Shown: positions 15,031 to 55,630 of the stretch, piece by piece
How the letters are laid out: every line of letters starts with the position of its first letter
Position numbering within the stretch: position 1 is the stretch's first letter
Assembly (NCBI GenBank): GCA_040219255.1
Contig: JAVJSW010000049.1
Location: forward strand, 128,001 to 192,000
Length of the DNA stretch: 64,000 nt
Source: Sumerlaeia bacterium
Lineage (GTDB): Bacteria; Sumerlaeota; Sumerlaeia; SLMS01; JAHLLQ01
Reading direction: 5' to 3'
The notes under the pieces: generated by a model
Database searches by the model: none
Told to the model about the DNA's origin: nothing
The model's input: the letters and a program-made list of their open reading frames with translations, nothing else
Position numbers and translations under genes: made by a program

Positions 15031-15660
15031 ATGAAGCTCAAACTCTATTCTCTCTTACTCCTCTTCGCCGCTCTGGTCTCCGTCTCCAGCGCCCAGACCT
15101 ACGTCTCCGTCACCGTCGACGGCGACGCCTCCGAGTGGGCCGGCGTCCCCCTCTACGAATCCGACCCCACCACCGACAGCACCAGCACCGCCGACATCTC
15201 CGCCGTCTATCTGGCGAACGACGACAATTACCTTTACGCTCTCGTGGAAATGACCACCGACACGGTCGCTCTTGGCGCCGACGGCGGCTTCTACACCTTC
15301 ATCGACGGCAATGGAAACGCGTCGGAGGGCTTCGGCCCCAACGGCGGCAGCGAGTTCTCCGAGTTCGCCAGCCAGGAAAGCTTCTTCTTCTTCCAGAGTT
15401 CCGGCGTCTTCAACACCGGCGGCTCGCCCACCGGCGTGGACTTTCTGATCGCTCCGGCGGCGGCGACCCCCGCCCAGTTCTACGAAATGCGCTTCTCGCG
15501 CGCGTCCGACGGTTTCACCGGCAGCCCGGCGACCACCGCCTTCATGGTTTCCCCCCGCGACGGCGCGTTCGCCGCCACCGATCTGGCGCCGAACGACGCG
15601 CCGACGACCTACACCTTCGCGATTTCCTCCTCCGTCTCCGATTGGCGGATGATCGATTGA
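15031..15660 (+). CDS. Small secreted single-module 'VTVDG..EW' protein with C-terminal Trp tail
   Basis: AGGAG RBS; signal peptide MKLKLYSLLLLFAALVSVSSA-Q; VTVDGDASEW, AVYLANDDNYLY; ends SSSVSDWRMID. Confidence 0.8.
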   Translation: MKLKLYSLLLLFAALVSVSSAQTYVSVTVDGDASEWAGVPLYESDPTTDSTSTADISAVYLANDDNYLYALVEMTTDTVALGADGGFYTFIDGNGNASEGFGPNGGSEFSEFASQESFFFFQSSGVFNTGGSPTGVDFLIAPAAATPAQFYEMRFSRASDGFTGSPATTAFMVSPRDGAFAATDLAPNDAPTTYTFAISSSVSDWRMID

Positions 15661-15810
15661 CCGCTTCTTCCGGTCGAAAGGCGTTGATTGTTTGAGCCAT
15701 TGCAGGGGCCGAAGAAGGGCCAGCCGGAACCGGCTGGCCCTTCTTCGCGAGAACGCTCCCGCCATCCCTTCCATACCGCCGAATTCTTTCCTGGAGACAC
15801 CCTATCCCTC

Positions 15811-17997
15811 ATGAAACGCCCCTGCCTTCCATCCCTCGCCTCGTCCGCGTTCGCGCTGACCGCGGCCGCCTCCGCGCTGGCGCAGGCCCCCATCGGCCGC
15901 CTCGCCGATTTCGAATCCAGCGACAGTTACCACATTTACTACGGCTCCTGGGACGCCACGCGCATCGCCGACGCCCGCGATAACTTCCGCCTCGTGGTGC
16001 TCGAACCGTCCTCGAACATCACCGCCGCCGACGTGGCCAATATCCAGCGCGGCCCCGACCTGACCGCCGGCACGGCGGACGATGTCCTCGTCCTGGGGTA
16101 CATTTCCCTGGGCGAAGACAACCGGCCGGAAATCTTCGATGGCATGAACGACATCCTGACCATCCCCGGCGGCGAAGGCCCTCGGGTCGATCCGCGCGAT
16201 TTCCCCGCCACGGAAACCCTGGCCAGCACCGTCAGCGCCGGCATCCCGACGCTCGGCGACCCATCCCCCGGCGGCACCGGCTATGCGCGGTTCTATGTGG
16301 ACGACGATCCGGTGGACGGCATTCCGGACCGGAACTCGGAATTCGGCGGGGCCTATGTCAACGCGGGCGATCCCCAGTGGTACGCCACCGTCAAGTCCAT
16401 GACGGCCCTGAGCGGCAGCAACGCCGGGCTCGACGAAATCATGGGGACTTCGGTGGGCAAAGCCCTCGGCTGCGACGGCATCTTCATCGATACCCTGGAG
16501 ACGCCCGCGCCCAACAGCTTCGGCGGCACCATGTACGAGTGGACCGCCCCCGGCGCCCAATACCTGCTCAAGGAAATCCGCACCGATTTCCCCGATAAGG
16601 TTCTGCTGCTCAATCGCGGACTGTTCTTTTTCTCGCCCAATTTCGAGCACTACCAGTTCTCGCTGGCGCCCTATGTTCAGGCGGTCATGTTCGAAAGCTA
16701 TTACACCACCAACAGCGACGCGAGTGTCACCAACCCGACCTTCAACGACAACAAGTACAACTTCGCGCCGAAGATCAACGCGGAGGCCAACCGCGAGAAT
16801 GGCTTCACGGTGATCGCGCTGGGCTATGACGAGCCTTCGACCATCACCCAACCCACGAAGGACCAGGACTTTATCGAGTCCACGGAACTTCAGGGGTGGC
16901 CGCTCTACCGCACGAACCGCAGCCTGGACGATGCCATGCGCTTCACGTCGCAGGCCTGGAACACGGCGAACCCGGACAGCGACCCGCCGGTGTGGGACAC
17001 GACGGCGCCGCTGTTCGTCGGCGAGTTGGACCCGGCCCCCACGCCCCGCGAAGGCGTGCAGGAATTGGTCGCGGGCGACGCGGAAATCACCGTCCGTTGG
17101 GATGTCGCCCGCGATCAGTCCCAGCCCGTCCTCTACAACCTTTACTACGCCGAGGACTCGGTCGTGACGGCCATCGGCGATGCGGGCTGGACCCAGGTGA
17201 TGCGCGTGGCCGGCGAAGCCCCCGCGAACTACGTGGAGGAGGGCTCGGGCGCGGGGCGCTATGCCAACGAATACACCCTGACCGGCCTGGTCAACGGGGT
17301 GACGTACCAGGTGGCGGTGCGCGCGGAAGACAGCGCCCCCACCCCGCACGAGGAAACGAACACCGTGGTCTTGACCGCGATGCCCTTCTCGCCCGCGGAC
17401 CTGTACCGCACCATCACCATCGATGGCGACATGAGCGACTGGCTCGGCGTTCCGGCCTATGTCAACGATCCCAACAACGACGGCGGCACGCCGGAAGGCA
17501 CCGCGCTCTACCTGGCGAACGACGACGATTACCTCTATGTGCGCGTCACCATCGAAGCCGGAGCGGCCATCCAGGCCCCCGGCGGCTACAACGTCTTCGT
17601 GGACACGGATGGCGATTCGGGCACCGGCTTCACGGCCTTTGGCAGCCCGAACTTCGGATCGGAATTGTTGCTACAGAACGGCGGGTTCTACCAGCAGCGG
17701 GGCGGAGGGTTCAACGAGGGCGGTATCAGCAACGCCGATTTCGCCATCGCTCCGGCCCCGGCGACCCAGGCCACGGACTACGAGTTCCGCATCAGCCGCT
17801 CGGCCACCTACGACAGCGACAGCGCGAACGTCTTTCCCGCCATGGCGAGCCTGCGCCTCGTGATGGACCTGTTCGACGGTGGCTTCGCCAGCGTCGATAC
17901 GCTGCCGAACTTGCCATCGGTCAATGCGCCCCTGTACAATTTTGCCACGGCCACTTCGGACCTCGGCCATTCGGAATGGATGACGCTGGATCGATGA
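15811..17997 (+). CDS. Second GH114-like secreted protein (paralogue of 7277..11254) with FN3 and one 'ITIDG' module
   Basis: Near-identical blocks VLGYISLGEDNRP, SPGGTGYA, GAYVNAGDP, GCDGIFIDT, FESYY; ends SEWMTLDR. Confidence 0.75.
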   Translation: MKRPCLPSLASSAFALTAAASALAQAPIGRLADFESSDSYHIYYGSWDATRIADARDNFRLVVLEPSSNITAADVANIQRGPDLTAGTADDVLVLGYISLGEDNRPEIFDGMNDILTIPGGEGPRVDPRDFPATETLASTVSAGIPTLGDPSPGGTGYARFYVDDDPVDGIPDRNSEFGGAYVNAGDPQWYATVKSMTALSGSNAGLDEIMGTSVGKALGCDGIFIDTLETPAPNSFGGTMYEWTAPGAQYLLKEIRTDFPDKVLLLNRGLFFFSPNFEHYQFSLAPYVQAVMFESYYTTNSDASVTNPTFNDNKYNFAPKINAEANRENGFTVIALGYDEPSTITQPTKDQDFIESTELQGWPLYRTNRSLDDAMRFTSQAWNTANPDSDPPVWDTTAPLFVGELDPAPTPREGVQELVAGDAEITVRWDVARDQSQPVLYNLYYAEDSVVTAIGDAGWTQVMRVAGEAPANYVEEGSGAGRYANEYTLTGLVNGVTYQVAVRAEDSAPTPHEETNTVVLTAMPFSPADLYRTITIDGDMSDWLGVPAYVNDPNNDGGTPEGTALYLANDDDYLYVRVTIEAGAAIQAPGGYNVFVDTDGDSGTGFTAFGSPNFGSELLLQNGGFYQQRGGGFNEGGISNADFAIAPAPATQATDYEFRISRSATYDSDSANVFPAMASLRLVMDLFDGGFASVDTLPNLPSVNAPLYNFATATSDLGHSEWMTLDR

Positions 17998-19379
17998 TTT
18001 CCTACAAGGACCTTCGCAGGCCCATGATCGACGGATTGCTTCCTTTTCTGACTGCCACTTGGATCGTGTTCGCCGCCCCGGCGGATACACCCGAACTCGC
18101 CTGGCACCCCATCGCCGCCGATCCGGCCGCCGCCCCCGCGGACAATCCGTTGAAGGGCTTCATGCCTTACATCGGCGAGTACGACCTGCCCCACAGCCTG
18201 GAATACAGCTACGTAGGTCTCGCCGAGGCCATGATCGCCCCGGGCAACTACGCCTTCGAGACCGCCATCGATCCACTGCTGGAGGACGCGGCGTCGCGCG
18301 GGCACCAGATGGTGTTGCGGGTCTTCATCGACTATCCGGACGAGACCCTGTCGCTGCCGCAATTCTTCATCGACGAAGGCATCACCCTGACGCCCTACAG
18401 CGACCACGGCGGCGGCATGAGCCCGGACTACGACTTTCCGGCCCTTGTCGAAGCCCTCGAGGATTTCATCGCGGCCCTCGGCGCCCGCTACGATGGCGAT
18501 CCCCGGCTTGGCTACTTCCAGGTCGGCCTGCTGGGCCACTGGGGCGAGTGGCACACCTATCCGAACTACAGTCTGTTTCCTTCCCTGGCGACGCAAAACC
18601 GCATCCTCGCCGCCTTCGACGCGGCGTTCGACGAAACCCATATCCTCGTTTCGCAGGACAGCATGGGCCAGGACCCGGTGGCAAACCTCGCCGCCACGGC
18701 CGTGGGCTTTCACGACGACGCGTTCACCGAAGGCACCCTCGGTCCCGACGACTGGATGTTCGTGCCAAGGCTCAACGCCTTTGGGTTCGATGAACGCTGG
18801 AAAACCATCCCCATGGGCGGCGAAGTCCTTCCCGATTTGCAGGACGACATCCTGGCCGATCCGCCGACCGCTCCCCAGGATTACCTCGCCTGCGTCGGCG
18901 CGACCCACGCGACCTGGCTGCTGAACCAATACCCCTTCGACCTCTCCCCCGGCGACGCCGCCCGCCGCGAGCGCGCCATCGCGCTGTCGCGGGCGCTGGG
19001 CTATGAACTGACCGTGACGGAGGCCGCCGCTCAGTTGACGACCGGCGCCCTGACCATCGGCGTCCGGATCGAAAACACAGGCGTCGCGCCCTTCCCTTAC
19101 GATTGGACGGTGACGGTGCGGTTGCTGGACAGCGGGGGCGAAGTTCTGGAAACCATCGAAACGCCTTGGCGCCTGACGGAGGTCATCCCAGGCGAACCGC
19201 CTCGCGAGTGGATCGTGGAGGCACCTATCGAGCCGCAGCTCGCCGCCTGCCTGACCGAAGCGCGTCTCTGGATCGAAAACCCCCTGAGCGGTGGTTTGCC
19301 TGTGCGCTTTGCCAATGAAGGCCAAAACGGATTCGGACTCTCGATCGCCCAATTCCCCCATTCTTGCCCGGCCCGTTGA
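17994..19379 (+). CDS. DUF4832-type putative glycoside hydrolase
   Basis: ATGA-coupled to upstream gene (alternative start 18024); DNPLKG, VLRVFIDYP, YDGDPR, QVGLLGHWGEWH, PMGGEV, LGYEL, NTGVAPF. Confidence 0.72.
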   Translation: MISYKDLRRPMIDGLLPFLTATWIVFAAPADTPELAWHPIAADPAAAPADNPLKGFMPYIGEYDLPHSLEYSYVGLAEAMIAPGNYAFETAIDPLLEDAASRGHQMVLRVFIDYPDETLSLPQFFIDEGITLTPYSDHGGGMSPDYDFPALVEALEDFIAALGARYDGDPRLGYFQVGLLGHWGEWHTYPNYSLFPSLATQNRILAAFDAAFDETHILVSQDSMGQDPVANLAATAVGFHDDAFTEGTLGPDDWMFVPRLNAFGFDERWKTIPMGGEVLPDLQDDILADPPTAPQDYLACVGATHATWLLNQYPFDLSPGDAARRERAIALSRALGYELTVTEAAAQLTTGALTIGVRIENTGVAPFPYDWTVTVRLLDSGGEVLETIETPWRLTEVIPGEPPREWIVEAPIEPQLAACLTEARLWIENPLSGGLPVRFANEGQNGFGLSIAQFPHSCPAR

Positions 19380-19411
19380 ACGGTTCGCCATCGATCGAAA
19401 AGGACGTTCTC

Positions 19412-20767
19412 ATGACTCCACAACGATTTCTCAAGGCGGGCGCGGCCGCCGCGTTCCTGGGCCTCGCGGCCTCGCCGGCCAACGCGATCGAGAGGACCTT
19501 TCCACCTTCGGACGAAGTCTTCATCAACCCGGAGCGCGGGTTCTACTTTCCGGTCCAATTCCGCAACGTGCCGTCGCTCGGCGCCATCCCGGCCCAGGGC
19601 ATTTCCCTGATTTATGCGGACATCTACCTGCCCGAATACCGGGATGGCCCCATCGCCCAGGATCGCCTGGACAACATCGTGGCCTCGTTCGACCGAACCC
19701 GCCAGGCGGGATTGAAGGCCATCGTCCGCATCACCTACAACCACGCCATCGGCGACGATGACGCGCCGCTCTCGGTGGTGGAGACGCACCTGGAGCAACT
19801 CGCCCCCATCTTCGAAGCCCACGCCGACGTGATCTACGGGTTCCAGGCCGGAATCATCGGCTCCTGGGGCGAATGGCACAGCTCCTCGAATGGCCTGACC
19901 AGCGAACCGAACCGCCGCGCCGTGATCGAGCTGCTCCTGCAACACACGCCCCCCGGCAAGTTCATTGCCCTGCGGACGCCGCCTTTCAAATGGGACTACA
20001 CCGGCGGAACGGCGCTGCTGCCTCAACAGGCTTTCACCGGCGTCCCCATCGCCCGGCTGGCGCATCACAACGATTGCTTCCTGGCCAGTTCGACCGATGT
20101 GGGAACCTATCCCGGCGACAGCGTCGAACTCTGGAAATCCCGCCTCGGCTTTGACACGCAGTTCGTCCCCATCGGCGGGGAAACCTGCCGCGTCAGCGAA
20201 TTCGGCACCTGCGGCTTCGGCATTCCGGAAATGGAGCGCCTCCACTGGAGCTACCTCAACATCGCCTACAACCAGGACGTCCTCGACGACATGGCGCCTT
20301 GCCGCCTGGAATTCGAGCGGCGCCTCGGCTATCGCTTCCGCCTGGTGAGCGCCTCCCTGCCCGATCAGTTGGTGACGGGGCGGGAGGCGACCGTGCGGCT
20401 CGTCTTCGCCAACGATGGCTTCGCGCCGATCTACAACCCAAGGCCCGTGGTGCTGCGGCTCCTGCGTTCGGACGACGTCGTGATGGAGATTCCCCTGACA
20501 ACGGCCGACCCGCGGCGCTGGCTGCCGGGCGAGGGTTTGACCTACACCGTGCAGGAGACCTTCACCGTGCCACCGGAAATCATCCCCGGCGATGTGGACT
20601 TGGCGATCAGGATGCCCGATCCGTCGGGGGCGCTGGAGGGCGATGCGCGCTATGCGATCCGCTTGGCCAACCCGGACCTGTGGGACGCGGCGGGTGGCCA
20701 GAATGTGTTTCTGCGCGGCGTTCCGCTGCAAGCGGTGCAGCCCGGCTCGACGTGGGCGGTGCGGTAA
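19412..20767 (+). CDS. Secreted DUF4874/DUF4832-type putative glycoside hydrolase
   Basis: Signal peptide; NPERG, AGLKAIVRITY, QAGIIGSWGEWH, HHNDCFL, IGGETC, HWSYLN, LGYRF, NDGFAP. Confidence 0.78.
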   Translation: MTPQRFLKAGAAAAFLGLAASPANAIERTFPPSDEVFINPERGFYFPVQFRNVPSLGAIPAQGISLIYADIYLPEYRDGPIAQDRLDNIVASFDRTRQAGLKAIVRITYNHAIGDDDAPLSVVETHLEQLAPIFEAHADVIYGFQAGIIGSWGEWHSSSNGLTSEPNRRAVIELLLQHTPPGKFIALRTPPFKWDYTGGTALLPQQAFTGVPIARLAHHNDCFLASSTDVGTYPGDSVELWKSRLGFDTQFVPIGGETCRVSEFGTCGFGIPEMERLHWSYLNIAYNQDVLDDMAPCRLEFERRLGYRFRLVSASLPDQLVTGREATVRLVFANDGFAPIYNPRPVVLRLLRSDDVVMEIPLTTADPRRWLPGEGLTYTVQETFTVPPEIIPGDVDLAIRMPDPSGALEGDARYAIRLANPDLWDAAGGQNVFLRGVPLQAVQPGSTWAVR

Positions 20768-20777
20768 AAAAAACGGC

Positions 20778-20804
20778 GATGGGGGAGCGGCCAGCTCCCC
20801 CATC
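20778..20804. terminator. Bidirectional terminator hairpin between convergent genes
   Basis: GATGGGGGAGC-ggcca-GCTCCCCCATC with an upstream A-run and downstream TCTTT. Confidence 0.7.
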
Positions 20805-20829
20805 TCTTTCCCTGCAATCACTCGTTCCC

Positions 20830-21780: not shown

Positions 21781-21841
21781 GGAACCTGTTGTCTTTCTGG
21801 TGTTCGTTGGTCAGGGAATCACACTCGCGCCCGGGTTCGCG

Positions 21842-30685: not shown

Positions 30686-31297
30686 TTACGGCGCGATCCC
30701 CGGGATTCCGGAGGACGAACCGCCATAACGCACCACGTCGCCATTGGACACGGTCCCGTTGGTGGCGTCGTACACGCCGTTCTCCGCGATGATTCCATCG
30801 TTGTCGGCCGGATCGCCCACCAGATCGAAGTCCAGATCGGGCCCCATGCTGCGGAGCGACCAGGCCTCCGCGTCCCAACGCAGAAAACCCACCGGCGGAT
30901 CGCTGGCGTAGTGGAAATATCGGTACGACGGGCCCCACGGCTCGGTGAAGTTCTTCTGCGGGTTGGCCGAGAGTTGGGGCTCGCCAGCCTGGAACGGATC
31001 GGCCGGAACGGACGTGATGTAGGCGATCGGCGTCGTCAGGAAGAAAACCGCCGTCTCGCCGTAGGGACCGCTCGTCGCCGGGTTGGTCCCGTAGAAGGGC
31101 GGGTAGTGGTTGTAGTCGACGACGTAAGCCTCGAAGGCGGTGGCCAGGGTACGCAGATCGGACTGGGCGCGGGAGACCTTGGAGCGCGTTTGCGCTTCCA
31201 GGAAGTTCGGCACGGCGATGGCCGCGAGGATGGCGATGATGGCGACGACGATGAGCAGTTCGATCAGCGTGAAGGCCGAGCGGCGGGAGTGAGTCAT
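30686..31297 (-). CDS. Prepilin-type N-terminal cleavage/methylation (pseudopilin-like) protein 1
   Basis: SA|FTLIELLIVVAIIAILAAIAVPNF class III signal; GGAGG RBS upstream of ATG 31297. Confidence 0.88.
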   Translation of the reverse strand: MTHSRRSAFTLIELLIVVAIIAILAAIAVPNFLEAQTRSKVSRAQSDLRTLATAFEAYVVDYNHYPPFYGTNPATSGPYGETAVFFLTTPIAYITSVPADPFQAGEPQLSANPQKNFTEPWGPSYRYFHYASDPPVGFLRWDAEAWSLRSMGPDLDFDLVGDPADNDGIIAENGVYDATNGTVSNGDVVRYGGSSSGIPGIAP

Positions 31298-37303: not shown

Positions 37304-38011
37304 ATGGTTTTCTCTTCCCCTTTCCGGAGACTTCCGGCTCCTCCGGCAGTCCGTCGCGGAGCCCTCAAGGGGGTCACTTTCCGGGCCTTCACACTGATCG
37401 AGCTTCTGATCGTCGTCGCGATCATCGCCATTTTGGCGGCCATCGCGGTTCCCAATTTCCTGGAAGCCCAGACTCGTGCGAAGACCTCGCGCGTGAAGTC
37501 CGACATGCGCTCCCTCGCCACCGCCCTTGAGTCCTACCGTGTGGACTCGAATCAGTACCCTTACGGCGATGGCACGGGCGACGGGTTCACGGCGGTCGCG
37601 GGGACACGGCGCCTGACGACACCGATCGCTTACATGACGACGATTCCGATCGATGTGTTCTCGCCCGATCCGAACACGGCGCCGTCCGCCGGTGCCTTTA
37701 TCCATCCCTACTCGCCCGCTTTCTTCTACGTTTCCTCGCGCCCCGGCGGCTTCCCTGGAATCGCGGCCAGCGCGGGCACTTGGGGCTGGCTCGTCGTCGA
37801 CTATCGTGTCAACGCCCTCGCCGTCGCCCCCAACACGGTGCTGGGAGCCGCTCTCGCCAACGAGTCGGAGAACGTTTTCTGGGAGCTTCGCAGCCTCGGT
37901 CCCGACCGCGAAGGCAACTCCAGCTTCCCCTACGATCCCACGAACGGAACGATCAGTTCCGGCGACGTCACCCTCTTCGGTCCCGGCAACTCGGGCAAGA
38001 ACGGCTTCTGA
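37304..38011 (+). CDS. Prepilin-type N-terminal cleavage/methylation protein 2
   Basis: RA|FTLIELLIVVAIIAILAAIAVPNF; AGGAG RBS; TTGACA at 37205. Confidence 0.88.
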   Translation: MVFSSPFRRLPAPPAVRRGALKGVTFRAFTLIELLIVVAIIAILAAIAVPNFLEAQTRAKTSRVKSDMRSLATALESYRVDSNQYPYGDGTGDGFTAVAGTRRLTTPIAYMTTIPIDVFSPDPNTAPSAGAFIHPYSPAFFYVSSRPGGFPGIAASAGTWGWLVVDYRVNALAVAPNTVLGAALANESENVFWELRSLGPDREGNSSFPYDPTNGTISSGDVTLFGPGNSGKNGF

Positions 38012-38090: not shown

Positions 38091-39518
38091 ATGCCACACA
38101 ATTTCAGAAACCACCTCCTGGGCTTCGCCGCCCTCAGCGCCCTTCCGCTTCTCGCTTCCGGAGCCGGCGCGCAGACACTCATCGAGAACTTTGAATTCGC
38201 CACCGACAACGCCGCCACCTCCGCCGCTCTGACCGTTGGCGTGGACCCTTCCGTGACCCTGAATCCCGTCAGCGGTTCCGGCGCCGACGCCAACGAGGGC
38301 ACTTTCTCCCTGGGCCTGGACCTCAATCTGGGCGGCGCCGCCTTCGAATCCGGGTTCGTGCGCCGCGTCCTCGCCGCGCCGGTCGCACTGTCCAAACCCT
38401 ACACCACCAGCGGCGTCGACAGCGACAACATCGCCGACCTGCGCGTCACCATCGACGTCAAGGGTGCCCCCGCCTTCGCCAGTTCCCTGAACACCAACCT
38501 GTGGATTCGCCTCAACGAAGCCGATGGCGACATCTGGCGCTACATCAACTTCAGCGACCCCGCCCTCAACGCCGCCACCTACACCGACGACCTGCGCCTG
38601 TTCGGCTTGGTTGATCGCGATGGGGCCTCCACCGGCGACGGCAACTTCACGGAAATCGTCAGCGTCGATCTGCTGATCCAAAACCCCGACGCCGTCGCCA
38701 AAGTGGGCACCATCTTCCTCGACGATCTGAAGGTGGAAGAACCCTCCGACGGCCCCACCTCCACCGGCCTGACCTATGTGGTGCCCCTGATCGATCCCGG
38801 CAACGCCCCCGACGTGACGGATTCCACCTTCGACGCGATCTTCGACAACGGCGGCGCCCATCAGGTCATCACCGGCGAGGACTGGAAAGACTGGGCTTCC
38901 CGCGCTTCCGACGAAGGCACTCCGATCACCGACAACCCCACCTCGGGCACGGAAATCGCCGCCACGTCCAAGGCCTATCTGCTCAGCGACGGCGACACCC
39001 TGTACTTCGGCATGCTCGTTTACGATCCCGACACCTCGGCCATGACCGCCGACACGGGCGACGACACCTATACGAAGTTCAATGTGGAAGACATCGAGGT
39101 CGCCTTCTCCGCCCTCTCCGGCGCCGCAGGCGTCAGCGACGCGGTCAAGCTGACCGCCGACGCTTTCGGAAACTTCGACGACATGATGCCCGACAGCCCC
39201 GCCGGCACGGCGATCAACACGTCGGCCCTGACGAACAGCAACAGCTACATCATCGACGCTAACACCTGGGCCGTGGAATGGAGCGTCGGCATCAATGAGT
39301 TGGTCAACCTCAGCGCGGCCAATCTCACGAACACCCTGCCCAGCGCACCGGGCACCTGGTACGGCCATATCGGCTATCAGTCGCCCTTCCCCACGGCCAA
39401 CCCGCGCGTTCCGCTCTATGCCGCCGGCCACGCCAACGGCTTCGCGAACTTCTCGGTCGAGTTCCTGCTTCCCGGCCCGGCTTCCGCCCACCTCGCCGTG
39501 TGGTCGCTCTACGAGTAA
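38091..39518 (+). CDS. Secreted two-domain protein (CBM-like + CBM9/DOMON-like) with C-terminal Trp tail
   Basis: AGGAG RBS, signal peptide; 'LIENFE...IFLDDLKV' jelly-roll; 'AYLLSDGDTLYFGMLVYD...EDIEVAF...WAVEWSV' CBM9-like; ends SAHLAVWSLYE. Confidence 0.7.
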   Translation: MPHNFRNHLLGFAALSALPLLASGAGAQTLIENFEFATDNAATSAALTVGVDPSVTLNPVSGSGADANEGTFSLGLDLNLGGAAFESGFVRRVLAAPVALSKPYTTSGVDSDNIADLRVTIDVKGAPAFASSLNTNLWIRLNEADGDIWRYINFSDPALNAATYTDDLRLFGLVDRDGASTGDGNFTEIVSVDLLIQNPDAVAKVGTIFLDDLKVEEPSDGPTSTGLTYVVPLIDPGNAPDVTDSTFDAIFDNGGAHQVITGEDWKDWASRASDEGTPITDNPTSGTEIAATSKAYLLSDGDTLYFGMLVYDPDTSAMTADTGDDTYTKFNVEDIEVAFSALSGAAGVSDAVKLTADAFGNFDDMMPDSPAGTAINTSALTNSNSYIIDANTWAVEWSVGINELVNLSAANLTNTLPSAPGTWYGHIGYQSPFPTANPRVPLYAAGHANGFANFSVEFLLPGPASAHLAVWSLYE

Positions 39519-39619: not shown

Positions 39620-40312
39620 TTACCCCGGGAACGCCCGCGAAGGAATCCGGAACACGTTCCCCATGCTGACCGTTCCGTTCGTCGGATCGTAGCGATTCCC
39701 CAGGTTGTACCGCGACATCGATATCGTGACGCCATTTTCATCCACCACGTGCAGCGTCTGGCTCGGGCCCACGCTGAACAGCAGCCACCGCGCCGGCGTC
39801 AGCGCCGGATCCGTTACCGCCGTGTCCGGGCCGATACCCTCCATCCTGCCGTTGCCCACCGCGTCGGCCGGCACCAGCACCGCCATCGCCGTCGTCCTCG
39901 TGCCGTCGAGATAGCCGAAACCGGCCCGCTCGTAGTAATACGGCCCCTCTGTAAACGTCAGCCCGGAGCCCGAATCGAGCGGATGCTTGAAGGCGTCTTG
40001 CGGCACATCGGTCATGTACGCGATCGGCGTCGTCAGCCCGCCGGGCCGCTCCACCGCGTTCAGCCGCGGATAGCCTTCGGGCACCATGAACAGCGCCCCG
40101 CCCACCGACTCCGAATACGGATAGGTGTTGTTGTCCACCGCGTAGGCCTCGACCGCCGTGGCGATGGTGCGCATGTCCGACGCCACGCGCGAGACCTTAC
40201 TGCGCGTCTGCGCCTCCAGGAAATTCGGCACGGCGATCGCCGCCAGGATCGCGATGATCGCCACCACGATCAAGAGTTCGATGAGTGTGAATGCTTGTGT
40301 TCTGTTCTTCAT
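39620..40312 (-). CDS. Prepilin-type N-terminal cleavage/methylation protein 3
   Basis: QA|FTLIELLIVVAIIAILAAIAVPNF; same downstream conserved blocks as paralogues 1 and 2. Confidence 0.88.
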   Translation of the reverse strand: MKNRTQAFTLIELLIVVAIIAILAAIAVPNFLEAQTRSKVSRVASDMRTIATAVEAYAVDNNTYPYSESVGGALFMVPEGYPRLNAVERPGGLTTPIAYMTDVPQDAFKHPLDSGSGLTFTEGPYYYERAGFGYLDGTRTTAMAVLVPADAVGNGRMEGIGPDTAVTDPALTPARWLLFSVGPSQTLHVVDENGVTISMSRYNLGNRYDPTNGTVSMGNVFRIPSRAFPG

Positions 40313-43782: not shown

Positions 43783-43789
43783 GATCCAG

Positions 43790-45691: not shown

Positions 45692-45728
45692 GATTGAAGC
45701 AGTCCTTATTTGACAGAATCGCCAGGGC

Positions 45729-48015: not shown

Positions 48016-48924
48016 ATGGCGCATCAGAAACCGCTTCGCCGGCTTGGCCTCACCGCCGCCTTGGCCTTTGGCCTGGCGACATCGTCTTTCGCATTCGACT
48101 GGACGCAGGTCCTCTCGGAAGAAAACGAGCAGGAGCTGCCTTCCTCGGCCGCGCGGCTTTACGAGGAAGCGCTCGAGTTGGCCGATCACATCGACTATCC
48201 GAACGCGGTGCGCACGCTGGTGGAAGCTGGCGAAGCCGCGCCCGAGCACATTGAGCTGCAATTCGTGATCGTCCGCTGGGCCCGCTACATGGGCGAGGTC
48301 TCCTACGGCGACACGTCGCTGCGCTACTTCGACTATGCGGAAGAGGCGCTGCGCCGGTTGCTGTCAAATTCGGCCATCGGGCCCGAGGAACGGAGCCGCG
48401 CCCTGACGGAAGCGACGCGCGTGCGCGGGTCGAAAGACAGCCTGCGCGAGCGCGATCAGGAACGGATGGAAAGCGGTGGCCTGCTGGTCGACAACATCCG
48501 CTCCTTCCGGATCGAAACCGCCTCCGGTCCCTACGCGGACAATCTGCGCGAGCGCGAACGAGGCGACGTCGAAAGCCGCGAACGCGAAGAAGAAGAAAAG
48601 GAACCCAAGGCCAATCCTTTCGCCAAAGCTCCCGGTGAAGACATCCAGCTTTCCGCCGCTCCCCAGGCCATTCGAGGCGCCGCGGGCGGTTTGAACCCGC
48701 AGTTCGGCGGAGCCGATCCCTTCGGCGGCGGCGCCGATCCCTTCGCCGCTGGCGGTGGCGGGGCCGATCCCTTCGGCGGCGGTGCCGATCCGTTCGCCGC
48801 TGGCGGCGGCGGGGCCGATCCCTTCGGCGGAGGCGGCGGTGCCGATCCGTTTGGCGGCGGTGGGGGCGCGGATCCCTTCGGCGGCGGCGGGGGTGCCGAT
48901 CCTTTTGGCGGAGGCGGAAAGTAG
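48016..48924 (+). CDS. Secreted helical protein with C-terminal (Gly-rich-ADPF)x8 repeat tail
   Basis: GAGGAG RBS; signal peptide; helical/TPR-like middle; eight ADPF repeats. Confidence 0.75.
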   Translation: MAHQKPLRRLGLTAALAFGLATSSFAFDWTQVLSEENEQELPSSAARLYEEALELADHIDYPNAVRTLVEAGEAAPEHIELQFVIVRWARYMGEVSYGDTSLRYFDYAEEALRRLLSNSAIGPEERSRALTEATRVRGSKDSLRERDQERMESGGLLVDNIRSFRIETASGPYADNLRERERGDVESREREEEEKEPKANPFAKAPGEDIQLSAAPQAIRGAAGGLNPQFGGADPFGGGADPFAAGGGGADPFGGGADPFAAGGGGADPFGGGGGADPFGGGGGADPFGGGGGADPFGGGGK

Positions 48925-49341
<417 letters not shown>

Positions 49342-49374
49342 TCGTTCTCTCAGCAAGGTTGACGACCCCCAATC

Positions 49375-50208
49375 ATGACGACTCTTTCCACGGACAACCG
49401 GATCGAAGCGCTCTTTCGCCGCACCAGGGAGGAAAACCGCGCGGCTCTGATCCTGTATCTGACGTCGGGTTTTCCGAACGAGGAAACGACCCGCAGGCTC
49501 CTGCCGGTGCTGGCGGAAGCGGGCTGCGACCTGATCGAGCTGGGCGTTCCCTTTAGCGATCCGATCGCCGACGGGCCGACGATCCAGAAGGCGTCGAGCG
49601 TCGCGCTCGACAACGGCATGACGCTCTCGAAGACGCTGGAGATCGCCCGGGAATTCCGCGCCGCCCACGAGACGCCGCTGATTCTCTTCGGGGCGCTCAA
49701 TCCGTTTCTCAAGCGGGGTCTGGAGGCGAGCGCCAGGGCCGCCAGGGAAGCCGGTGCGGATGGGTTTCTGGCCGCCGATCTGCCCGCCGAAGAAGCCGAC
49801 GAGTTCGCCGAAATCTGCGAGCGCGAGAACCTGAAACTGGTCCTCCTCGCCGCCCCCACCAGCCCCGACGGGCGCCTGCGCGCCATCGCCGCGAAGTCCA
49901 CCGGGTTTCTCTACTGTATCTCCAGCCGGGGCATCACCGGCGCCCGCGATACAATGGGTCCCAACGTGACCGAGTACCTGGGCCGCGTGCGCGCCCAGAT
50001 CGAAGCCACCGGCAAGCCCCTGCCGCTGGCGGTCGGCTTTGGCATTTCCAAGCCCGAGCACGCCGCCCTGATGGCGCCGCACTGCGAAGCGGTCGTCGTC
50101 GGCAGCGCTCTGATCAACCTGATTCAGGAATGCGCCAACCGAGGCGAAGACCCGGCCGAGCCCGTGCGGGCCTTCGTCCGCGCCATGGCCGACGCCACGA
50201 GGCGCTGA
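49375..50208 (+). CDS. trpA: Tryptophan synthase alpha subunit
   Basis: IELGVPFSDPIADGPTIQ, GFLYCIS.RGITG, AVGFGIS, VVVGSA. Confidence 0.95.
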   Translation: MTTLSTDNRIEALFRRTREENRAALILYLTSGFPNEETTRRLLPVLAEAGCDLIELGVPFSDPIADGPTIQKASSVALDNGMTLSKTLEIAREFRAAHETPLILFGALNPFLKRGLEASARAAREAGADGFLAADLPAEEADEFAEICERENLKLVLLAAPTSPDGRLRAIAAKSTGFLYCISSRGITGARDTMGPNVTEYLGRVRAQIEATGKPLPLAVGFGISKPEHAALMAPHCEAVVVGSALINLIQECANRGEDPAEPVRAFVRAMADATRR

Positions 50209-50251
50209 CGCTCGGTAGGCCTGGGTCCGATTCCCCCATCATGAAAAACGG

Positions 50252-50286
50252 AAGAAGCCGCCCGGCATGGTCGCGGGCGGCTTCTT
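50252..50286. terminator. Bidirectional terminator
   Basis: AAGAAGCCGCCCG...CGGGCGGCTTCTT between convergent trpA and the DUF1573 gene. Confidence 0.75.
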
Positions 50287-50317
50287 TCGTTGGTGCGATC
50301 GGAGAGTGTCGGAGGGC

Positions 50318-51520
50318 TTACGGAGCCGAGGTGTTGGGCTCGACCGGCGCCGGGGCGGCGGAGGTCGTGTAGGGTTCGCGCACGACCATGCTGAAGGGAA
50401 CGGTCAGTTCCTGGGCGGCGCCGGCGGCGTTGCCCTTGACGACGAGAGTGCCGCGATAGGCGCCGATTTCATCGGGAGCGGTGACGCTGGCGCGCAGGCG
50501 CGGCGTGGGGGTGTCTTCCCCAACGAGTTCCAGGCCGAAGCCGATCTTTTCCGCGTCCACCACTTCCTGGCTGGTGCCAAAGGTGGTATTGGTGAGTTCG
50601 TAGCCGGTGAGTTCGAAGGTCTTGCCGGGGCGGACCTTCATGGTCAGGGCCTGGGTCTTGGAGTCGCCGGGGGAAACGACGCCAAACCAGAGGGTGTTTT
50701 GAATGATTTCCACATCGCCGCTGATCTGGCCGGTGATGAGGGCGGAGAACATGGGGTAGTCGGCGTAATCGGTGCGGAGCGTCAGGTTTCCCGCGAGCCG
50801 CTTGGCCGTGGAATTCTCCGGCACCGTCAGGGTCACAGGCGTCCGGGTGCCGGTGCGGCCCCCTTCTTCGGTGTACTCTTCCGGCTCGCCGACGGATGTC
50901 TCGACGGGGATGTTGTCGGGGCTGATGCTGACGTTGAGGATCTTGACCTCCACATCGGGTTCGAAGTCGTAGAGGTAGATCGTCTGGGTGGCGCCTTCGT
51001 TGGCATCCACATCGCCGAAGTTCACGGTGCGGTCGGACAGTTCGACCTTGCGAACCACATCGCCCGCCAGATTGAGGGCGACGGTGGGCTGCCGCTCATA
51101 ATCGGTCATCAGCGTGATGGTCTTGCGCTGGGCGCCGCTGCGGCCGCGGGAGTTGAAGGTGGCGCGGACCGCGTCGCCTTCGCCGGGCTGGAAGGTGCGG
51201 CCGATCAGTTCGTCCTTATTGCCAGCGGTGCAGCCGCAGGACGTGCGCAGATCGGTGATCTTGATGGGTTTGTCACTGGTGTTGACGAAGGGGAATTCAA
51301 CCTTGGCTTCCGCGCCTTCGTCAATGGTGCCGAAGTTCACCGTTTGGGTGGTGAAGGCCAGACCGGGCGAGGACTCCGCGGCGGGACGGGCTTCCGGGGC
51401 TTCCTTCATGTCGACGGTGCCGGGCAGGGGCTCGGCCTGTTGACCATAAGCCATGGTCAGTGGAAGCGCCAGAAAGCCGGAGAGAAGAAGATGGCTGGCG
51501 CGGAATTTCAGAGGCATCAT
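50318..51520 (-). CDS. DUF1573 domain Ig-like secreted protein
   Basis: Signal peptide; 'NFGTI...FPFVNT...ITDLRTSCGCT...PGE...TFNS' plus two further Ig-like repeats. Confidence 0.85.
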   Translation of the reverse strand: MMPLKFRASHLLLSGFLALPLTMAYGQQAEPLPGTVDMKEAPEARPAAESSPGLAFTTQTVNFGTIDEGAEAKVEFPFVNTSDKPIKITDLRTSCGCTAGNKDELIGRTFQPGEGDAVRATFNSRGRSGAQRKTITLMTDYERQPTVALNLAGDVVRKVELSDRTVNFGDVDANEGATQTIYLYDFEPDVEVKILNVSISPDNIPVETSVGEPEEYTEEGGRTGTRTPVTLTVPENSTAKRLAGNLTLRTDYADYPMFSALITGQISGDVEIIQNTLWFGVVSPGDSKTQALTMKVRPGKTFELTGYELTNTTFGTSQEVVDAEKIGFGLELVGEDTPTPRLRASVTAPDEIGAYRGTLVVKGNAAGAAQELTVPFSMVVREPYTTSAAPAPVEPNTSAP

Positions 51521-51580
51521 GGATGCGATTCTCCTCGTGATTGCGATACGTTTCGGGACGGTCCCGAAGATGAGACGAGA

Positions 51581-52468
51581 TTATCCCGTGGGAGGTTTGT
51601 CGTCGGACAGAACCGCGTTCAAGCCCCCACTGGCGAACCCGGCCAAATCGAGCGTGATCCAGCGGAATCCGAGTCGCCGGTATTCCCGCACGAGGCGGTC
51701 ACGGTGCGCAAGGAGGATTGGAAACGCCTCCGGTTCGACCTCGATGCGGGCCACTTCGCCATGATGGCGGCAGCGCAGGTTCCCCGTGACGCCGAGACCC
51801 CGCAGGTACTTCTCCGCCAGGGCGACCTGCGTCAATTTGTCCTCCGTGATGCGCTCGCCGTAGGGCACCCGGCTCGACAGACAAGGCGCCGCCGGTTTGT
51901 CGTGGTTCGGCAAGCCCCAGCGCTTGGCGATGGCGCGCACTTCGGCTTTGGTGATGCCGCAATCGCGCAGCGGCGACAGCACGCCCCGCTCCGCCACGGC
52001 CTTCAGTCCCGGGCGGTAATCGCCGCCGTCGTCGGCGTTCGTGCCGTCGCACACGGCGCCAAAACCCTCGGCCCGGGCCACCGCTGTCAGTCGGTCGTAC
52101 AGCTCGGACTTACAGTAATAGCAACGGTTGGCCGGGTTGCTGGCGTAGTTGGGGATGGCGAGTTCGCTGTACTCTATGACGCGCAGGGCGAAGCCGTGCT
52201 CCGCGGCGAGGCCCTCGCACAGCGCCACATCGTCGGTGGTGTTCGATTCGCTCTTGGCCACGACGCCCAGCGCCCCCGCCTCGAGCGCTCGGTGGGCCGC
52301 CGCCATGACGACGGTGCTGTCGACTCCGCCGCTGAACGCCACCAGCACCCGCGGCCCCAGGGCCCGCAGCCGGGCAAGGAGGGCGTCGATTTTCTCGTCG
52401 AGGGTCAAATCCGGGGTGGTGATGGCCAGGGCAGACAAAGGGGAACTCCGCGCAGGGGGTAGGGGCAT
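51581..52468 (-). CDS. larE: LarE-like ATP-dependent sacrificial sulfur transferase (TIGR00268 family)
   Basis: VAFSGGVDST (PP-loop), NRCYYCK, DGTNADD..DYRPG, SPL, PCLSSRVPYG; start uncertain. Confidence 0.88.
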   Translation of the reverse strand: MPLPPARSSPLSALAITTPDLTLDEKIDALLARLRALGPRVLVAFSGGVDSTVVMAAAHRALEAGALGVVAKSESNTTDDVALCEGLAAEHGFALRVIEYSELAIPNYASNPANRCYYCKSELYDRLTAVARAEGFGAVCDGTNADDGGDYRPGLKAVAERGVLSPLRDCGITKAEVRAIAKRWGLPNHDKPAAPCLSSRVPYGERITEDKLTQVALAEKYLRGLGVTGNLRCRHHGEVARIEVEPEAFPILLAHRDRLVREYRRLGFRWITLDLAGFASGGLNAVLSDDKPPTG

Positions 52469-52706
52469 CGCCTGCAAAGGGCGCGCCGCCGAGAACTTTT
52501 TAGAGGTTGGGGGCGGGTTCTGGCAATGGGGAGTGCTTGGAGGCTTCACAAATCTTTGGGAGAGCGGGGCGGGCGGGGGGAGACGGAGAGCGCGGAGGGA
52601 ATGTCGTGACGCAACGGCCTCATCCCGCCGTTGCGTCCGCCGCGCCGCTGTGGCATCGGTGCGCGGCTGATTTGGCCCCGGGGGGCTGGTGGAGGTTCGT
52701 TTGCCG

Positions 52707-53540
52707 ATGCGCATGAGGGTGATTGTGACGGGGTCTGGGACCTCGACGGGGGTGCCTCCCATCGGGTGCGAGGCGCCGGTGTGCCTGTCCGGCGACCCGC
52801 GCAACAAGCGCCTGCGGTCGGGGCTGTACTTTCAGGAACTCGGCGGCCAGAGCAGCCCCCACGCCCCCGGCGAGCACCCGCTGGCCTTTATCGTGGATTG
52901 CAGCCCGGATTATCGCCAGCAGGCCCTGACCCACAAAATCAACCGCATCGATGGGGTTTTGCTGACGCATTCGCATTTCGACCACGTGGCGGGTCTGGAT
53001 GATTTGCGGATTTATAATTTCCGGCAAAAACACGCCCTGCCGCTCTATGGCCCGGCGTGGACGCTGGACGATGTGCGGCGGCGCTGCGATTATTTCTTCA
53101 ACCCGCCGCAGGAAGGCGGCGGCGTGGCCAGTTTCGACCTGCGCCCCGTGGACCCGGCGGTGCCTTTTGTCTTTCTCGACCGCCTCGCTGTCGAGCCGGT
53201 GCCGGTGAAGCACGGCATCGCGGACGTGTTCGGTTACCGGTTCGGCGATTTCGCCCACATCACGGACGCGAGCGAAATCCCGGCGTCGTCTCTGGAGAGA
53301 CTGCGAGGCTGCCGCGTGCTGATCCTGAACGCGCTGCGCAGCCGTCCCCACTCGACGCACCTGAGCCTCGACGAGGCGGTCGAGGTGGCGCGGGATCTCG
53401 CCCCCGAGCAGACCTACTTCGTCCACATGAACCACGAACTCGATCATGAGGAAACGAACGCCAAGCTGCCGCGCGGAATGGCGCTGGCGTACGATGGCCT
53501 GGCCTTCGAGATCGAGGCGCGCGAGGCCACCGCCGAATAA
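52707..53540 (+). CDS. MBL-fold metallo-hydrolase (PhnP-like)
   Basis: GSGTSTGVPPIGC..VC, THSHFDHVAGLDD, HITD, HMNH, AYDG. Confidence 0.9.
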   Translation: MRMRVIVTGSGTSTGVPPIGCEAPVCLSGDPRNKRLRSGLYFQELGGQSSPHAPGEHPLAFIVDCSPDYRQQALTHKINRIDGVLLTHSHFDHVAGLDDLRIYNFRQKHALPLYGPAWTLDDVRRRCDYFFNPPQEGGGVASFDLRPVDPAVPFVFLDRLAVEPVPVKHGIADVFGYRFGDFAHITDASEIPASSLERLRGCRVLILNALRSRPHSTHLSLDEAVEVARDLAPEQTYFVHMNHELDHEETNAKLPRGMALAYDGLAFEIEAREATAE

Positions 53541-53938
53541 TGGCCCGCAAACCGACCTACTATGAGGTGCTGCAAGTCGCCCCCGACGCCGACCGCGAGG
53601 TGATCCTGGCGGCGTACCGGACGCTGCAGAAGAAGCACCATCCGGATAGTGGCGGTTCGGAGGAGATGGCGCGGCTGCTGAACGAGGCGAAGGGCATCTT
53701 GCTGGATCCGGCGCGGCGGCGGGCCTATGACGAGTATCTGACCAGCCGCAACCGCCCGCGCCCGGCGGCGGCTTCCGGGCAAGACTGGGAGGAAGGCTCG
53801 GGCCGCCTGCCCCGGGTCATCCACAACCACGAGGCGGAGGAGGAAGACGGGGCGGAGCCGATCGTGTGGATTCTGGTGGGGCTGGTGGGGGGGCTGATCG
53901 GAGTGGCATTGCTGGCGTACGCGACAACAGTAAATTAA
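53540..53938 (+). CDS. J-domain protein with C-terminal TM anchor
   Basis: YYEVLQV, AYR, HHPD, LNEA, LLDPARRRAYD; C-terminal hydrophobic helix. Confidence 0.88.
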   Translation: MARKPTYYEVLQVAPDADREVILAAYRTLQKKHHPDSGGSEEMARLLNEAKGILLDPARRRAYDEYLTSRNRPRPAAASGQDWEEGSGRLPRVIHNHEAEEEDGAEPIVWILVGLVGGLIGVALLAYATTVN

Positions 53939-54085
53939 TGGTACCTGTCAAAAATTAACTTCCGGGGCCCAAAATTGGCCCGCTCCAATGCAACAATTTG
54001 CTTGATTGTGGCTGCCTGGGGGAAGCAGGCTCGGCATTGTGTCTACGACATGGAGTTCAAGTTTATTTTCTGCAAGGAGTGCCTC

Positions 54086-55630
54086 ATGAAGCATTCTCAT
54101 CTTTTGGCCATGCTGGCTGGGTTCGCGGCCGTTCCCGTTCTGGCCCCGGCTGCCACCGCCTTCGTCGACGGCGTGACCACCACGACCATTGAAGCGGCTT
54201 ACGCCTCTCTGAACCGCGCCGACGGCGAAGCGGACGTGATCGACATCGTGGGCGACGCGACCTCCGCGGGTCTCTACATTGACAGCAACGGCGCCACGAG
54301 CGACTCGCTGACGATCGAAGGCAACGGCAACCGGATCACCTTCACCGGTGAACTGGCGAACTTTTCAGCTGGTACCGGCTCTCTGATCGACGTCGACGTC
54401 GCGGCGGGGCAGGAAGTCCGTTTCCAGAACTTCACCATGGTGATCGACTGGGCATCGAGCGGCACGATCGGCCGGACAAACGGCATCCTTGTGGACGAAG
54501 CCGACGGCGTCGGCCCGAACGGCGCCATCGTGGAATTGAACAACGTTCAGCTCCGTATGGTGGACAGCGCCAACAACCTGATTCCGCTGGGTGACAACCC
54601 GGTCGGTTCCTACGGCATCGCGTTTGGCGGCGGGTGGTTCTCGACGCCGGCCAGCACAGCGCAATTCAACTTGGTGGACTGCGTGATTCAGACCAAGCAC
54701 GTGGAAACCGGTGGTTTCGCCAGCGGCTGGGAGTTCTACCTGGACGACATGGCTGCCCTGGTCGACAATTGCTCCTTCTACACTTACGGCCCGGACGATG
54801 GTTCCGGCGGTGGCGATTCGCTGTTCTTCAGCGCCGCTAACGGCGCCGATATCACCGTGCAGAATACCTATCTGACGGCGGAATCGCAGGGCATCAACAA
54901 CAGCAGCAGCAGCGGAATCGGCACTGCGTCGACCACGCTGTTGCTGGACACGATCGTTGTCGAAAACTGCGGCGACTTCGGCGTCGAACTTGACGAGGGC
55001 GTCGTCACCATCGTGAACTCGAGCTTCCTGAACAACGGCCAGGAAGGCCTCAAAGTCGTCGACGGCACCACGGTCGTCACCGGCATCACCGACTCGGTCT
55101 TCTGCAACAACGCGTTCTACGGCATCGAGTTCAACGAAATCGACCTGAGCGTCGATCCGATCATCTCGGGCTGCCTGTTCGTGAACAACGGCAGCGATTC
55201 GGGCCACCAGGGCCAGTTCCGCATCGGCGACACGAACGCCACGACGGCGACGCTGACGATCGTGAACAGCACGTTCCACGACGCGGCCACGACCTACGCG
55301 ATCCGCATCAACTCGGCGCTGACCAATGCCGACATCGACGGCTGCATCTTCACCGGCGACGCCGCCGAGCAGGCCGTGGAAGTGACCGGCTCCGGTTCCT
55401 CCGCCACCATCGACGACAGCGCGGTCGTCCTGATGGCGCAGGGCGATGGCACCTTCACCAACATCACCACGGTCGATCCGTCCTACACGAACACGAACTG
55501 CCCGCCGGACGCGGACAGCTTCGACATCAACGACCCGGCCTACTTCACCGCCGGCCCCGGCGGCGCGCAGCTGACCGGCTTCGGCGATCCGAACCCGGCC
55601 AAGGTCGGTTCGTGGCGCATGCTCGACTAA
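54086..55630 (+). CDS. Secreted right-handed beta-helix protein with C-terminal Trp tail
   Basis: AAGGAG RBS; signal peptide; repeated 'NCSF/NSSFLNNG/DSVFCNN/GCLFVNNG/NSTF' parallel beta-helix rungs; ends AKVGSWRMLD. Confidence 0.78.
   Translation: MKHSHLLAMLAGFAAVPVLAPAATAFVDGVTTTTIEAAYASLNRADGEADVIDIVGDATSAGLYIDSNGATSDSLTIEGNGNRITFTGELANFSAGTGSLIDVDVAAGQEVRFQNFTMVIDWASSGTIGRTNGILVDEADGVGPNGAIVELNNVQLRMVDSANNLIPLGDNPVGSYGIAFGGGWFSTPASTAQFNLVDCVIQTKHVETGGFASGWEFYLDDMAALVDNCSFYTYGPDDGSGGGDSLFFSAANGADITVQNTYLTAESQGINNSSSSGIGTASTTLLLDTIVVENCGDFGVELDEGVVTIVNSSFLNNGQEGLKVVDGTTVVTGITDSVFCNNAFYGIEFNEIDLSVDPIISGCLFVNNGSDSGHQGQFRIGDTNATTATLTIVNSTFHDAATTYAIRINSALTNADIDGCIFTGDAAEQAVEVTGSGSSATIDDSAVVLMAQGDGTFTNITTVDPSYTNTNCPPDADSFDINDPAYFTAGPGGAQLTGFGDPNPAKVGSWRMLD

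Follow-up and report, generated by a model that had tools for sequence, protein, structure and literature searches.

A short tryptophan-bearing tail as a candidate C-terminal sorting tag on exported proteins of Sumerlaeota

Tagged proteins within the window

The DNA considered here, referred to as the window, is a 64,000-nucleotide stretch (contig C49, positions 128001–192000) of a 5.35-Mb, 92% complete Sumerlaeota genome, G000, and the element in question is a short C-terminal tail built around a tryptophan residue, hereafter the Trp tag, found on several secreted proteins encoded there (Table 1). A first-pass annotation had read five such tails as a lineage-specific export or surface-attachment tag; all five are present, with stops at 15660, 17997, 20767, 39518 and 55630 on the plus strand, each on an open reading frame with a signal-peptide-like N-terminus, and the 647-, 1306- and 494-residue secreted proteins from which it had reported the tail missing do lack it, as do a 1325-residue and a second 451-residue protein. 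That the carriers are of unrelated fold holds for most of them, the exceptions being the proteins ending at 15660 and 17997: the last domain of the latter is paralogous to the former, so that the five tails of the window amount to four independent cases. For the protein ending at 55630, labelled a beta-helix in that annotation, no Pfam match at E ≤ 0.1 was obtained.

The tails at 17997 and 20767 satisfy only a looser rule and not the tag matrix described below, and the two window paralogues (12757–14700 and 18024–19379) of the tagged 451-residue DUF4874+DUF4832 protein carry no tag. A homologue search with the 209-residue protein returned only the query, and its single-sequence structure model (predicted local distance difference test score, pLDDT, of 36.6) was unusable. 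Positions 7277–20767 hold a cluster in which two GH114-like proteins are accompanied by three DUF4874/DUF4832 paralogues and by DOMON-like repeats; part of the cluster is tagged, which suggests one polysaccharide system with split localisation.

Table 1. Tagged proteins, their tails and adjacent prepilin genes in the window
Feature	Position	Strand	Remarks
Secreted 209-residue protein, one DOMON-like domain, tagged	15031..15660	+	weak match: Firmicu-CTERM-associated domain; score 18.7
Trp tag SSSVSDWRMID, canonical	15625..15657	+	on the 209-residue protein
Secreted 728-residue protein, GH114-like + fn3 + DOMON-like	15811..17997	+	Pfam
Trp tag SDLGHSEWMTLDR, divergent, W at −6	17956..17994	+	score −2.4
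Secreted 451-residue DUF4874+DUF4832 protein	19412..20767	+	Pfam
Trp tag PGSTWAVR, short second form, W at −4	20741..20764	+	score −4.3
Prepilin of expanded family, context; possible export-machine part (candidate)	37304..38011	+	
Secreted 475-residue protein, no Pfam/NCBIfam match, flanked by two prepilin genes	38091..39518	+	
Trp tag ASAHLAVWSLYE	39480..39515	+	score 8.2
Prepilin of the same expanded family as 37304..38011, context	39620..40312	−	
Secreted 514-residue repeat-rich protein, no Pfam/NCBIfam match	54086..55630	+	
Trp tag PAKVGSWRMLD	55595..55627	+	score 13.9

A strictly terminal motif enriched among exported proteins

Across the 3803 genes of G000, called with an in-house dicodon model (approximate, gene starts included) and classed by an in-house hydropathy heuristic that is likewise approximate, tryptophan occurs at positions −4 to −6 in 119 of 910 signal-peptide proteins versus 68 of 1988 cytoplasmic proteins (odds ratio 4.2, p = 8e-21), which leaves roughly 88 proteins in excess, and at the remaining positions within −1 to −15 its frequency is about 1–2% in both classes. 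The genome-wide enrichment among signal-peptide proteins that the first-pass annotation proposed to look for is thus present. A matrix score of at least 10 is reached by 41 of 910 signal-peptide proteins, 1 of 95 lipoproteins, 2 of 681 membrane proteins and 3 of 1988 cytoplasmic proteins, a comparison that is partly circular since the matrix was seeded from signal-peptide proteins, with leave-one-out scores throughout; most of the last five matches look like misclassified exported proteins.

The resulting logo reads [AS]-[SND]-V-x-[DGN]-W-x-[LΦ]-[YFL], followed by 0–2 residues, often E or D, with a core consensus of V-x-[DNG]-W-x-[LIM]-[YF]-(E/D) and a tag length of 8–10 residues. Position W+3 proves to be aromatic genome-wide in place of the M/L-hydrophobic-D/E ending proposed from the window alone. 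A second, weaker form with W at −4, approximately P..[GS]-W-Φ-Φ-x, contributes some 28 further proteins. The hand-curated set, made by uniting matrix and rule matches (16 dropped, 7 added), comprises 98 tagged proteins, about 2.5% of the proteome, from 61 families and with 80 unrelated segments preceding the tail. The tag is strictly terminal, its core score being reached by 43 of 50 tails and by only 11 of 21,346 internal tryptophan sites, and the sequence directly upstream is enriched in Pro, Gln, Ser and Ala, as in a linker, with some tails standing behind pure PT repeats.

Neither the logo nor the tails contain a transmembrane helix or basic cluster, and no Pfam or NCBIfam model matches any of the 50 tails, both in keeping with the first-pass annotation; its proposal of an export or surface-attachment tag independent of a membrane helix is supported by the enrichment, the terminal position, the linkers and the absence of a model in these two databases. 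An ESM Atlas search with the tail gave a best value of 0.81, the level of chance. The sole match of a PDB sequence search with the tail profile, Tako8, presumably a designed repeat protein, was taken as chance.

A shared 120-residue domain ending in H/Y-G-P sits directly before the tag in eight G000 proteins (C26:14681, C30:54697, C37:78514, C39:11115, C49:93914, C60:240211, C70:29681 and C76:2564), with one untagged copy at C42:199125, and is possibly an unnamed choice-of-anchor domain.

Cargo and the anchor slot

Pfam scans covered 53 of the 98 tagged proteins and 113 of 143 untagged signal-peptide neighbours in G000. Matches were obtained for 37 of the 53, nearly all of extracellular type, including FG-GAP, lamin-tail, beta-helix, TSP3, Calx-beta, PKD, CotH, endonuclease I, subtilase, GH16, GH18, GH31 and C25 domains. 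All envelope residents that could be recognised fall within the 113 untagged neighbours (three solute-binding proteins, an amidase, an LD-transpeptidase, two peptidyl-prolyl isomerases, two Omp85 proteins, a TonB receptor and six secretins), as do several glycoside hydrolases that are quite possibly secreted. Choice-of-anchor domains end directly before the tag, type D at residue 895 of 918, type Z at 2453 of 2483 and type Q at 754 of 768, and homologues of proteins anchored elsewhere by MYXO-CTERM, GlyGly-CTERM or LPXTG signals, MtsC and ExeM homologues among them, carry the tag instead.

About 21 further exported G000 proteins (including C37:274, C59:9959 and C68:89510) have one dockerin-like EF hand, D-x-N-x-D-x-x-V-D-[VI]-A-D-Φ-Φ, at their extreme C-terminus, and three pairs of paralogues exchange the Trp tag for this EF-hand end (C65:95720/C27:84158, C77:38796/C39:113563 and C83:251/C46:237491). 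The position directly behind choice-of-anchor domains, together with this exchange, argues that the tag very probably behaves as a sorting or docking signal.

Distribution across genomes and phyla

A DNA pattern for the tag, 11 of whose 13 matches in G000 are true, was run with its reversed form as a control. In 75 Sumerlaeota genomes it gave 822 matches against 147 reversed controls, with 45 genomes exceeding the control by at least five matches, and in 35 genomes of the OLB16 phylum (Hinthialibacterota) it gave 1152 against 169, 34 of the 35 having matches. A hidden Markov model (HMM) of the tail matches 69 of the 75 Sumerlaeota genomes at E ≤ 1, the six without a match being G033, G070, G035, G038, G046 and G073. 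A stricter pattern, applied to 185,579 species genomes, returned 44 loci, of which 26 end long open reading frames (13 in Sumerlaeota, 9 of OLB16 type, 3 in Pacearchaeota and 1 chance cytoplasmic enzyme) and the other 18 fall in frames no longer than 80 residues; this pattern detects one tag variant only, so that further phyla may have divergent tags. The tag is real and widespread, being found genome-wide, in Sumerlaeota and Hinthialibacterota, and on a few proteins of Pacearchaeota. It thus reaches beyond the single lineage of the first-pass annotation, being carried by two phyla.

Two Pacearchaeota genomes (DPANN archaea) of 30–33% GC, G078 and G079, have near-identical canonical tags on unrelated signal-peptide proteins (L024:2207–4027, L035:3641–4027 and L031:1724–4027), with five copies on one G078 contig among toxin–antitoxin-like and transposase-like genes; they may have arrived by gene transfer or may serve for docking on a bacterial host. 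Three pattern matches at two Methanovirga loci (L019 and L026), in short frames with near-identical flanks, are probably a repeated non-coding element.

Secretins, pilins and a double-cohesin protein

G000 encodes eight secretins, several GspE/PilB-type ATPases, 59 prepilin-like proteins and two Omp85 genes, and each of the 35 OLB16-phylum genomes has 3–9 secretins. SprA and PorV were found above cut-off in none of four genomes, a Bacteroidota control being positive, and exosortase PF09721 is absent from G000, rhombosortase and myxosortases lying outside that search. The secretin/pseudopilus machinery of the type II secretion (T2SS)–type IV pilus family is the only folded-protein outer-membrane exporter found in these genomes, and the suggestion of the first-pass annotation that a pilin/T2SS-like machine handles the tag is plausible on this gene content. 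The short terminal peptide on Sec-exported proteins co-occurs in G000 with secretins and at least six K/X-like minor pilins, five of which end in a Trp-bearing segment of their own; pilins of K/X-like type are encoded at C34:17519, C11:30781, C60:283296, C68:230262, C68:323002, C35:45708 and C26:30298. Of the 98 tagged genes, nine have a pilin of the expanded family no more than three genes away, against a mean of 4.5 in random sets of exported genes, 6 of 300 of which reach nine. That prepilin family, reminiscent of DUF1559 pilins, shows a Y-D-P-T-N-G motif in at least 27 members, and sugar ABC transporters and regulators are frequent neighbours of its genes; its window members are those of Table 1 and a third at 30686–31297.

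A search for cohesins led to a signal-peptide protein with two such domains (C37:60239; paralogue C11:59404), adjoining a GspE/PilB ATPase and an MshEN protein. It is present in 74 of 75 Sumerlaeota and 34 of 35 OLB16-phylum genomes. A sample of 201 genomes belonging to the phylum of a Kiritimatiellae record was without it, as were 10 other genomes, a profile search returning 350 representatives at 1e-30. Its structure model (pLDDT 79) best matches type II cohesin dyads (E 1e-15). In eight of eight OLB16-phylum loci its gene is the first of an operon that continues with a PilM–PilN fusion, a membrane-anchored protein of 430–540 residues and a secretin, the latter of 1000–1300 residues in seven loci and split in the eighth. 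The corresponding operon of G000, at C44:18442–24938 (L069) and with a PilM–PilN fusion and a 1262-residue secretin, lacks the cohesin gene. A complex prediction of the double-cohesin domains of G075 with a 32-residue tail, run without controls, scored 0.02 and counts neither way.

The C44 operon is weakly similar to the Akkermansia Amuc_1098–1101 cluster and is conserved in the OLB16 phylum; in a T2SS operon (C11:38031), gspE is separated from gspF by a gene for a 500-residue, membrane-anchored protein resembling tetratricopeptide repeats (TPR); and secretin domains occur within open frames of 3300–4000 residues in G077:C6, G111:C11 and G113:C9. Three exported G000 proteins with a cohesin-like N-terminus or a common C-terminal repeat (C1:85877, C42:103566 and C60:248100) are possible surface scaffolds.

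Large C25 peptidases

C25 peptidases occur in 73 of 75 Sumerlaeota and all 35 OLB16-phylum genomes, and two large untagged groups, of about 1800 and 1250–1600 residues, are common to both phyla according to a grouping by FastTree only, in which the Sumerlaeota and OLB16 halves of the 1800-residue group are not joined. The G000 members (C39:174038–179506, L140; C8:84678–89189, L141) represent a type that retains the Gly-His-Gly and Cys positions and has PorU as its best NCBIfam match, at 108–194 bits against a cut-off of 420. The gene for the 1822-residue C25 of G000 is followed in its operon by TPR, membrane, sugar-dehydratase and O-antigen-ligase-family genes, an order largely kept only in G016 and G006 and absent, as regards the ligase neighbourhood, from the OLB16-phylum loci.

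Among genomes at least 85% complete, both large C25s are missing only from G033 (complete) and G070, of genus g28, which also give no tail-HMM match. In 840 kb (14%) of G033, none of 113 signal-peptide proteins meets the tag rule, about 10 being expected, the same rule being met by 86 of 1005 G000 proteins. The idea that only the 1800-residue clade tracks the tag was rejected, since family f11 has tags in its absence and known members are misplaced by HMM scores. Families f11 and f15 have two copies of the second C25 type, and the first was not found in them, as though two large C25s were retained in every case.

A proposed route and its difficulties

The reading favoured here, at a rough probability of 0.6, is that the tag is a linear C-terminal export label, acting through Sec export, a shared partner and a secretin machine jointly. 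Sec-type signal peptides, as judged from sequence, bring the tagged proteins to the periplasm, where the free tail very probably binds one shared partner through hydrophobic contacts of its V, W and Y/F residues, and some 2.5% of the proteome would in this way be selected for the cell exterior. The partner would then, somewhat more probably than otherwise, be part of a secretin/pseudopilus machine, its reader being either a K/X-type minor pilin, to which the tail adds a strand, or the periplasmic double-cohesin protein; the former identification is tentative and the latter rather unlikely. A PorU-like C25 peptidase might further cut near the tail and transfer the protein to a surface glycolipid, a doubtful additional step. 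The double-cohesin protein and the large PorU-like C25 pair are two candidate machines conserved in both phyla.

Several observations weigh against this account. Pattern counts lie within two of the control in 22 of the 75 Sumerlaeota genomes. Many enzymes that are likely extracellular, with GH16+CBM6, GH31, GH66, GH97 and pullulanase proteins among them, have neither the Trp nor the EF-hand tag, and an S13 DD-carboxypeptidase is among the tagged proteins. On the tag matrix, the five K-like pilins have terminal Trp strands that score at background. In none of 11 Sumerlaeota loci is the cohesin gene beside PilM or a secretin; tag-less G033 retains two cohesin dyads, and G085 retains one with no pattern match, although its genes look frameshifted, which makes it a weak tag-less control. 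G035, G038 and G046 hold a large C25 without a tail-HMM match, family f11 is tagged although no C25 of the 1800-residue clade was found there, and the joint absence of C25s and tag amounts to one loss event. Finally, two sister phyla represent about one independent origin, so that any core gene common to them co-occurs with the tag.

Alternative readings of the tail

A special case of the secretin route, and a serious though less probable alternative, is docking in the manner of PilC, PilY1 and MshQ, tip adhesins that attach through a C-terminal beta-strand added to PilK/PilX minor pilins. The tail would be a donor strand completing a K/X minor pilin, and some 100 cargos would be loaded singly at the pseudopilus tip, like tip adhesins, for passage through the secretin. 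The length, terminal position and helix-free nature of the tag fit, as do the abundance of prepilin-like proteins, the K/X-like pilins and the proximity of tagged genes to family pilins; against this, no K-like pilin of G000 is clearly without its own last strand as judged by sequence, the Trp ends of five score at background, and the exchange with an EF-hand end is hard to explain by strand addition.

Of similar probability is a purely sortase-based role, in which a C25 transpeptidase would remove the tail and link the protein to a glycolipid, export being decided otherwise. The two tag-less C25 clades with their catalytic residues, the PorU match, the ligase and dehydratase neighbours kept in G006 and G016 and the joint loss in genus g28 are consistent with it. 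The loss is a single event, however, tag-poor genomes with large C25s exist, the C25 scores of 189 and 167 fall far below the PorU cut-off, the logo has no fixed P1 residue, and OLB16-phylum loci do not share the ligase neighbourhood.

It is rather improbable that the tail is a miniature dockerin, with tail and EF-hand end as two ligands of the double-cohesin protein, which would serve as periplasmic adaptor or as surface scaffold. The cohesin-dyad fold, its restricted range, its place in the secretin operon and the paralogue exchanges speak for it, and no protein has both ends (0, from 87 tagged and 21 EF-hand proteins), but with 1.9 expected this exclusion is not significant, and the dyad persists in G033 and G085. 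The related notion of the tag as a dockerin helix in vestigial form was discarded: the best register is the predicted one, yet 48% of shuffled columns equal it.

Less probable again is a receptor-free anchor whose V-W-Y face would insert into the outer leaflet or bind a surface polymer. Its aromatic, amphipathic spacing and the near-identical tags of two Pacearchaeota without a cohesin dyad would suit such an anchor; the invariant Trp, fixed spacing and acidic flanks across two phyla would instead point to a protein pocket, and eight net-negative residues would make a poor membrane anchor. That the tail is no signal at all, but simply closes each terminal domain as its last strand or descends from a common ancestral fragment, finds an echo in the pre-tail domain shared by eight proteins and is very improbable and largely refuted, on sequence comparison, by the 80 unrelated pre-tail segments, the tails behind pure PT linkers and the last domains, such as the Golvesin type, that are complete without a tail elsewhere.

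Relation to known sorting systems

A close parallel in logic is type IX secretion (the T9SS), which likewise combines a Sec signal peptide with a helix-less C-terminal label on many unrelated extracellular proteins, and C25-family peptidases with a nearby O-antigen-ligase gene recall it further. PorU transfers proteins to A-type lipopolysaccharide. The T9SS C-terminal domain works with this sortase (Gorasia 2015, PMC4560394). Unlike that folded domain of about 70 residues (TIGR04183/PF18962), the tag has 8–10 residues; neither model matches any tail, the one internal match in the genome falling in an untagged protein, and with no SprA/PorV in the four genomes scanned, C25s under the PorU cut-off and secretins in their place, a T9SS reading was rejected.

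With the strand of PilC/PilY1/MshQ the tag shares very short length, terminal position, lack of a membrane helix and a link to secretin/pilin machines, but a genome has it on some 100 enzymes and adhesins that are unrelated to each other and not on one tip adhesin; PilC/PilY1, tip adhesins of beta-propeller type, matched none of the 53 tagged proteins scanned. LPXTG, PEP-CTERM, GlyGly-CTERM and MYXO-CTERM signals occupy the same terminal slot on the same kinds of protein, behind choice-of-anchor domains D, Q and Z. The tag lacks the hydrophobic segment and basic cluster of tripartite signals, and in the absence of PF09721 from G000 an exosortase-type reading was rejected; the part of Haft 2023 (10.1101/2023.06.07.544157) that is accessible describes the tripartite design and mentions neither Sumerlaeota nor BRC1.

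A cohesin-fold protein and dockerin-like ends in one genome recall cohesin–dockerin docking, for which a non-cellulosomal 'planctosome' has been proposed (accessible part of PMC6461901). The dyad differs from a cellulosomal scaffoldin in being a low-copy core gene of a secretin operon and not multi-cohesin, and the tag differs from dockerin in having no calcium loop and no significant likeness. Dockerin-type giant genes near T2SS-like loci appear, in the accessible text of 10.1101/2023.11.21.568195, in Omnitrophota. Like T2SS substrates, the tagged proteins would be folded periplasmic cargo leaving through a secretin; unlike the composite, structural signal that is the prevailing view of T2SS substrate recognition in the available portion of Pineau 2021 (PMC7949064), the tag would be a single, transferable linear signal. 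A beta-signal for the beta-barrel assembly machinery was rejected, the carriers having soluble folds, Omp85, the TonB receptor and the secretins being untagged, and 0–2 residues following the aromatic position.

In its working the tag resembles a T9SS signal or the docking strand of PilY1, but it falls outside each catalogued family tested and is accordingly placed as a variant of its own among C-terminal sorting signals. No description of it was found in the literature searched, supplements and most subscription papers being outside that coverage, and the accessible part of Fang 2021 (PMC8092238) holds no export analysis.

Elsewhere in the window, positions 48016–48924 encode an exported helical protein with C-terminal Gly-Ala-Asp-Pro-Phe repeats.

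Implications

A fuller version of the proposal, in which a T2/IV-pilus secretin machine, the linear tag, a double-cohesin adaptor and a PorU-like sortase pair form one new pathway, with the tag interchangeable with a one-EF-hand tag and kept by some Pacearchaeota for docking on hosts, is speculative and on balance unlikely; if true, it would represent T9SS-like logic on T2SS hardware. How secretin-based systems choose their cargo is a long-open question, and an eight-residue tag shared by about 100 unrelated proteins, for which candidate readers can be named, opens it to direct testing. The tag adds an entry to the catalogue of C-terminal sorting signals, could provide a minimal display tag for engineering if portable, and hints that C25 peptidases and cohesin domains may have a role beyond T9SS and the cellulosome; for two uncultured polymer-degrading phyla, it serves as a predictor of the secretome.

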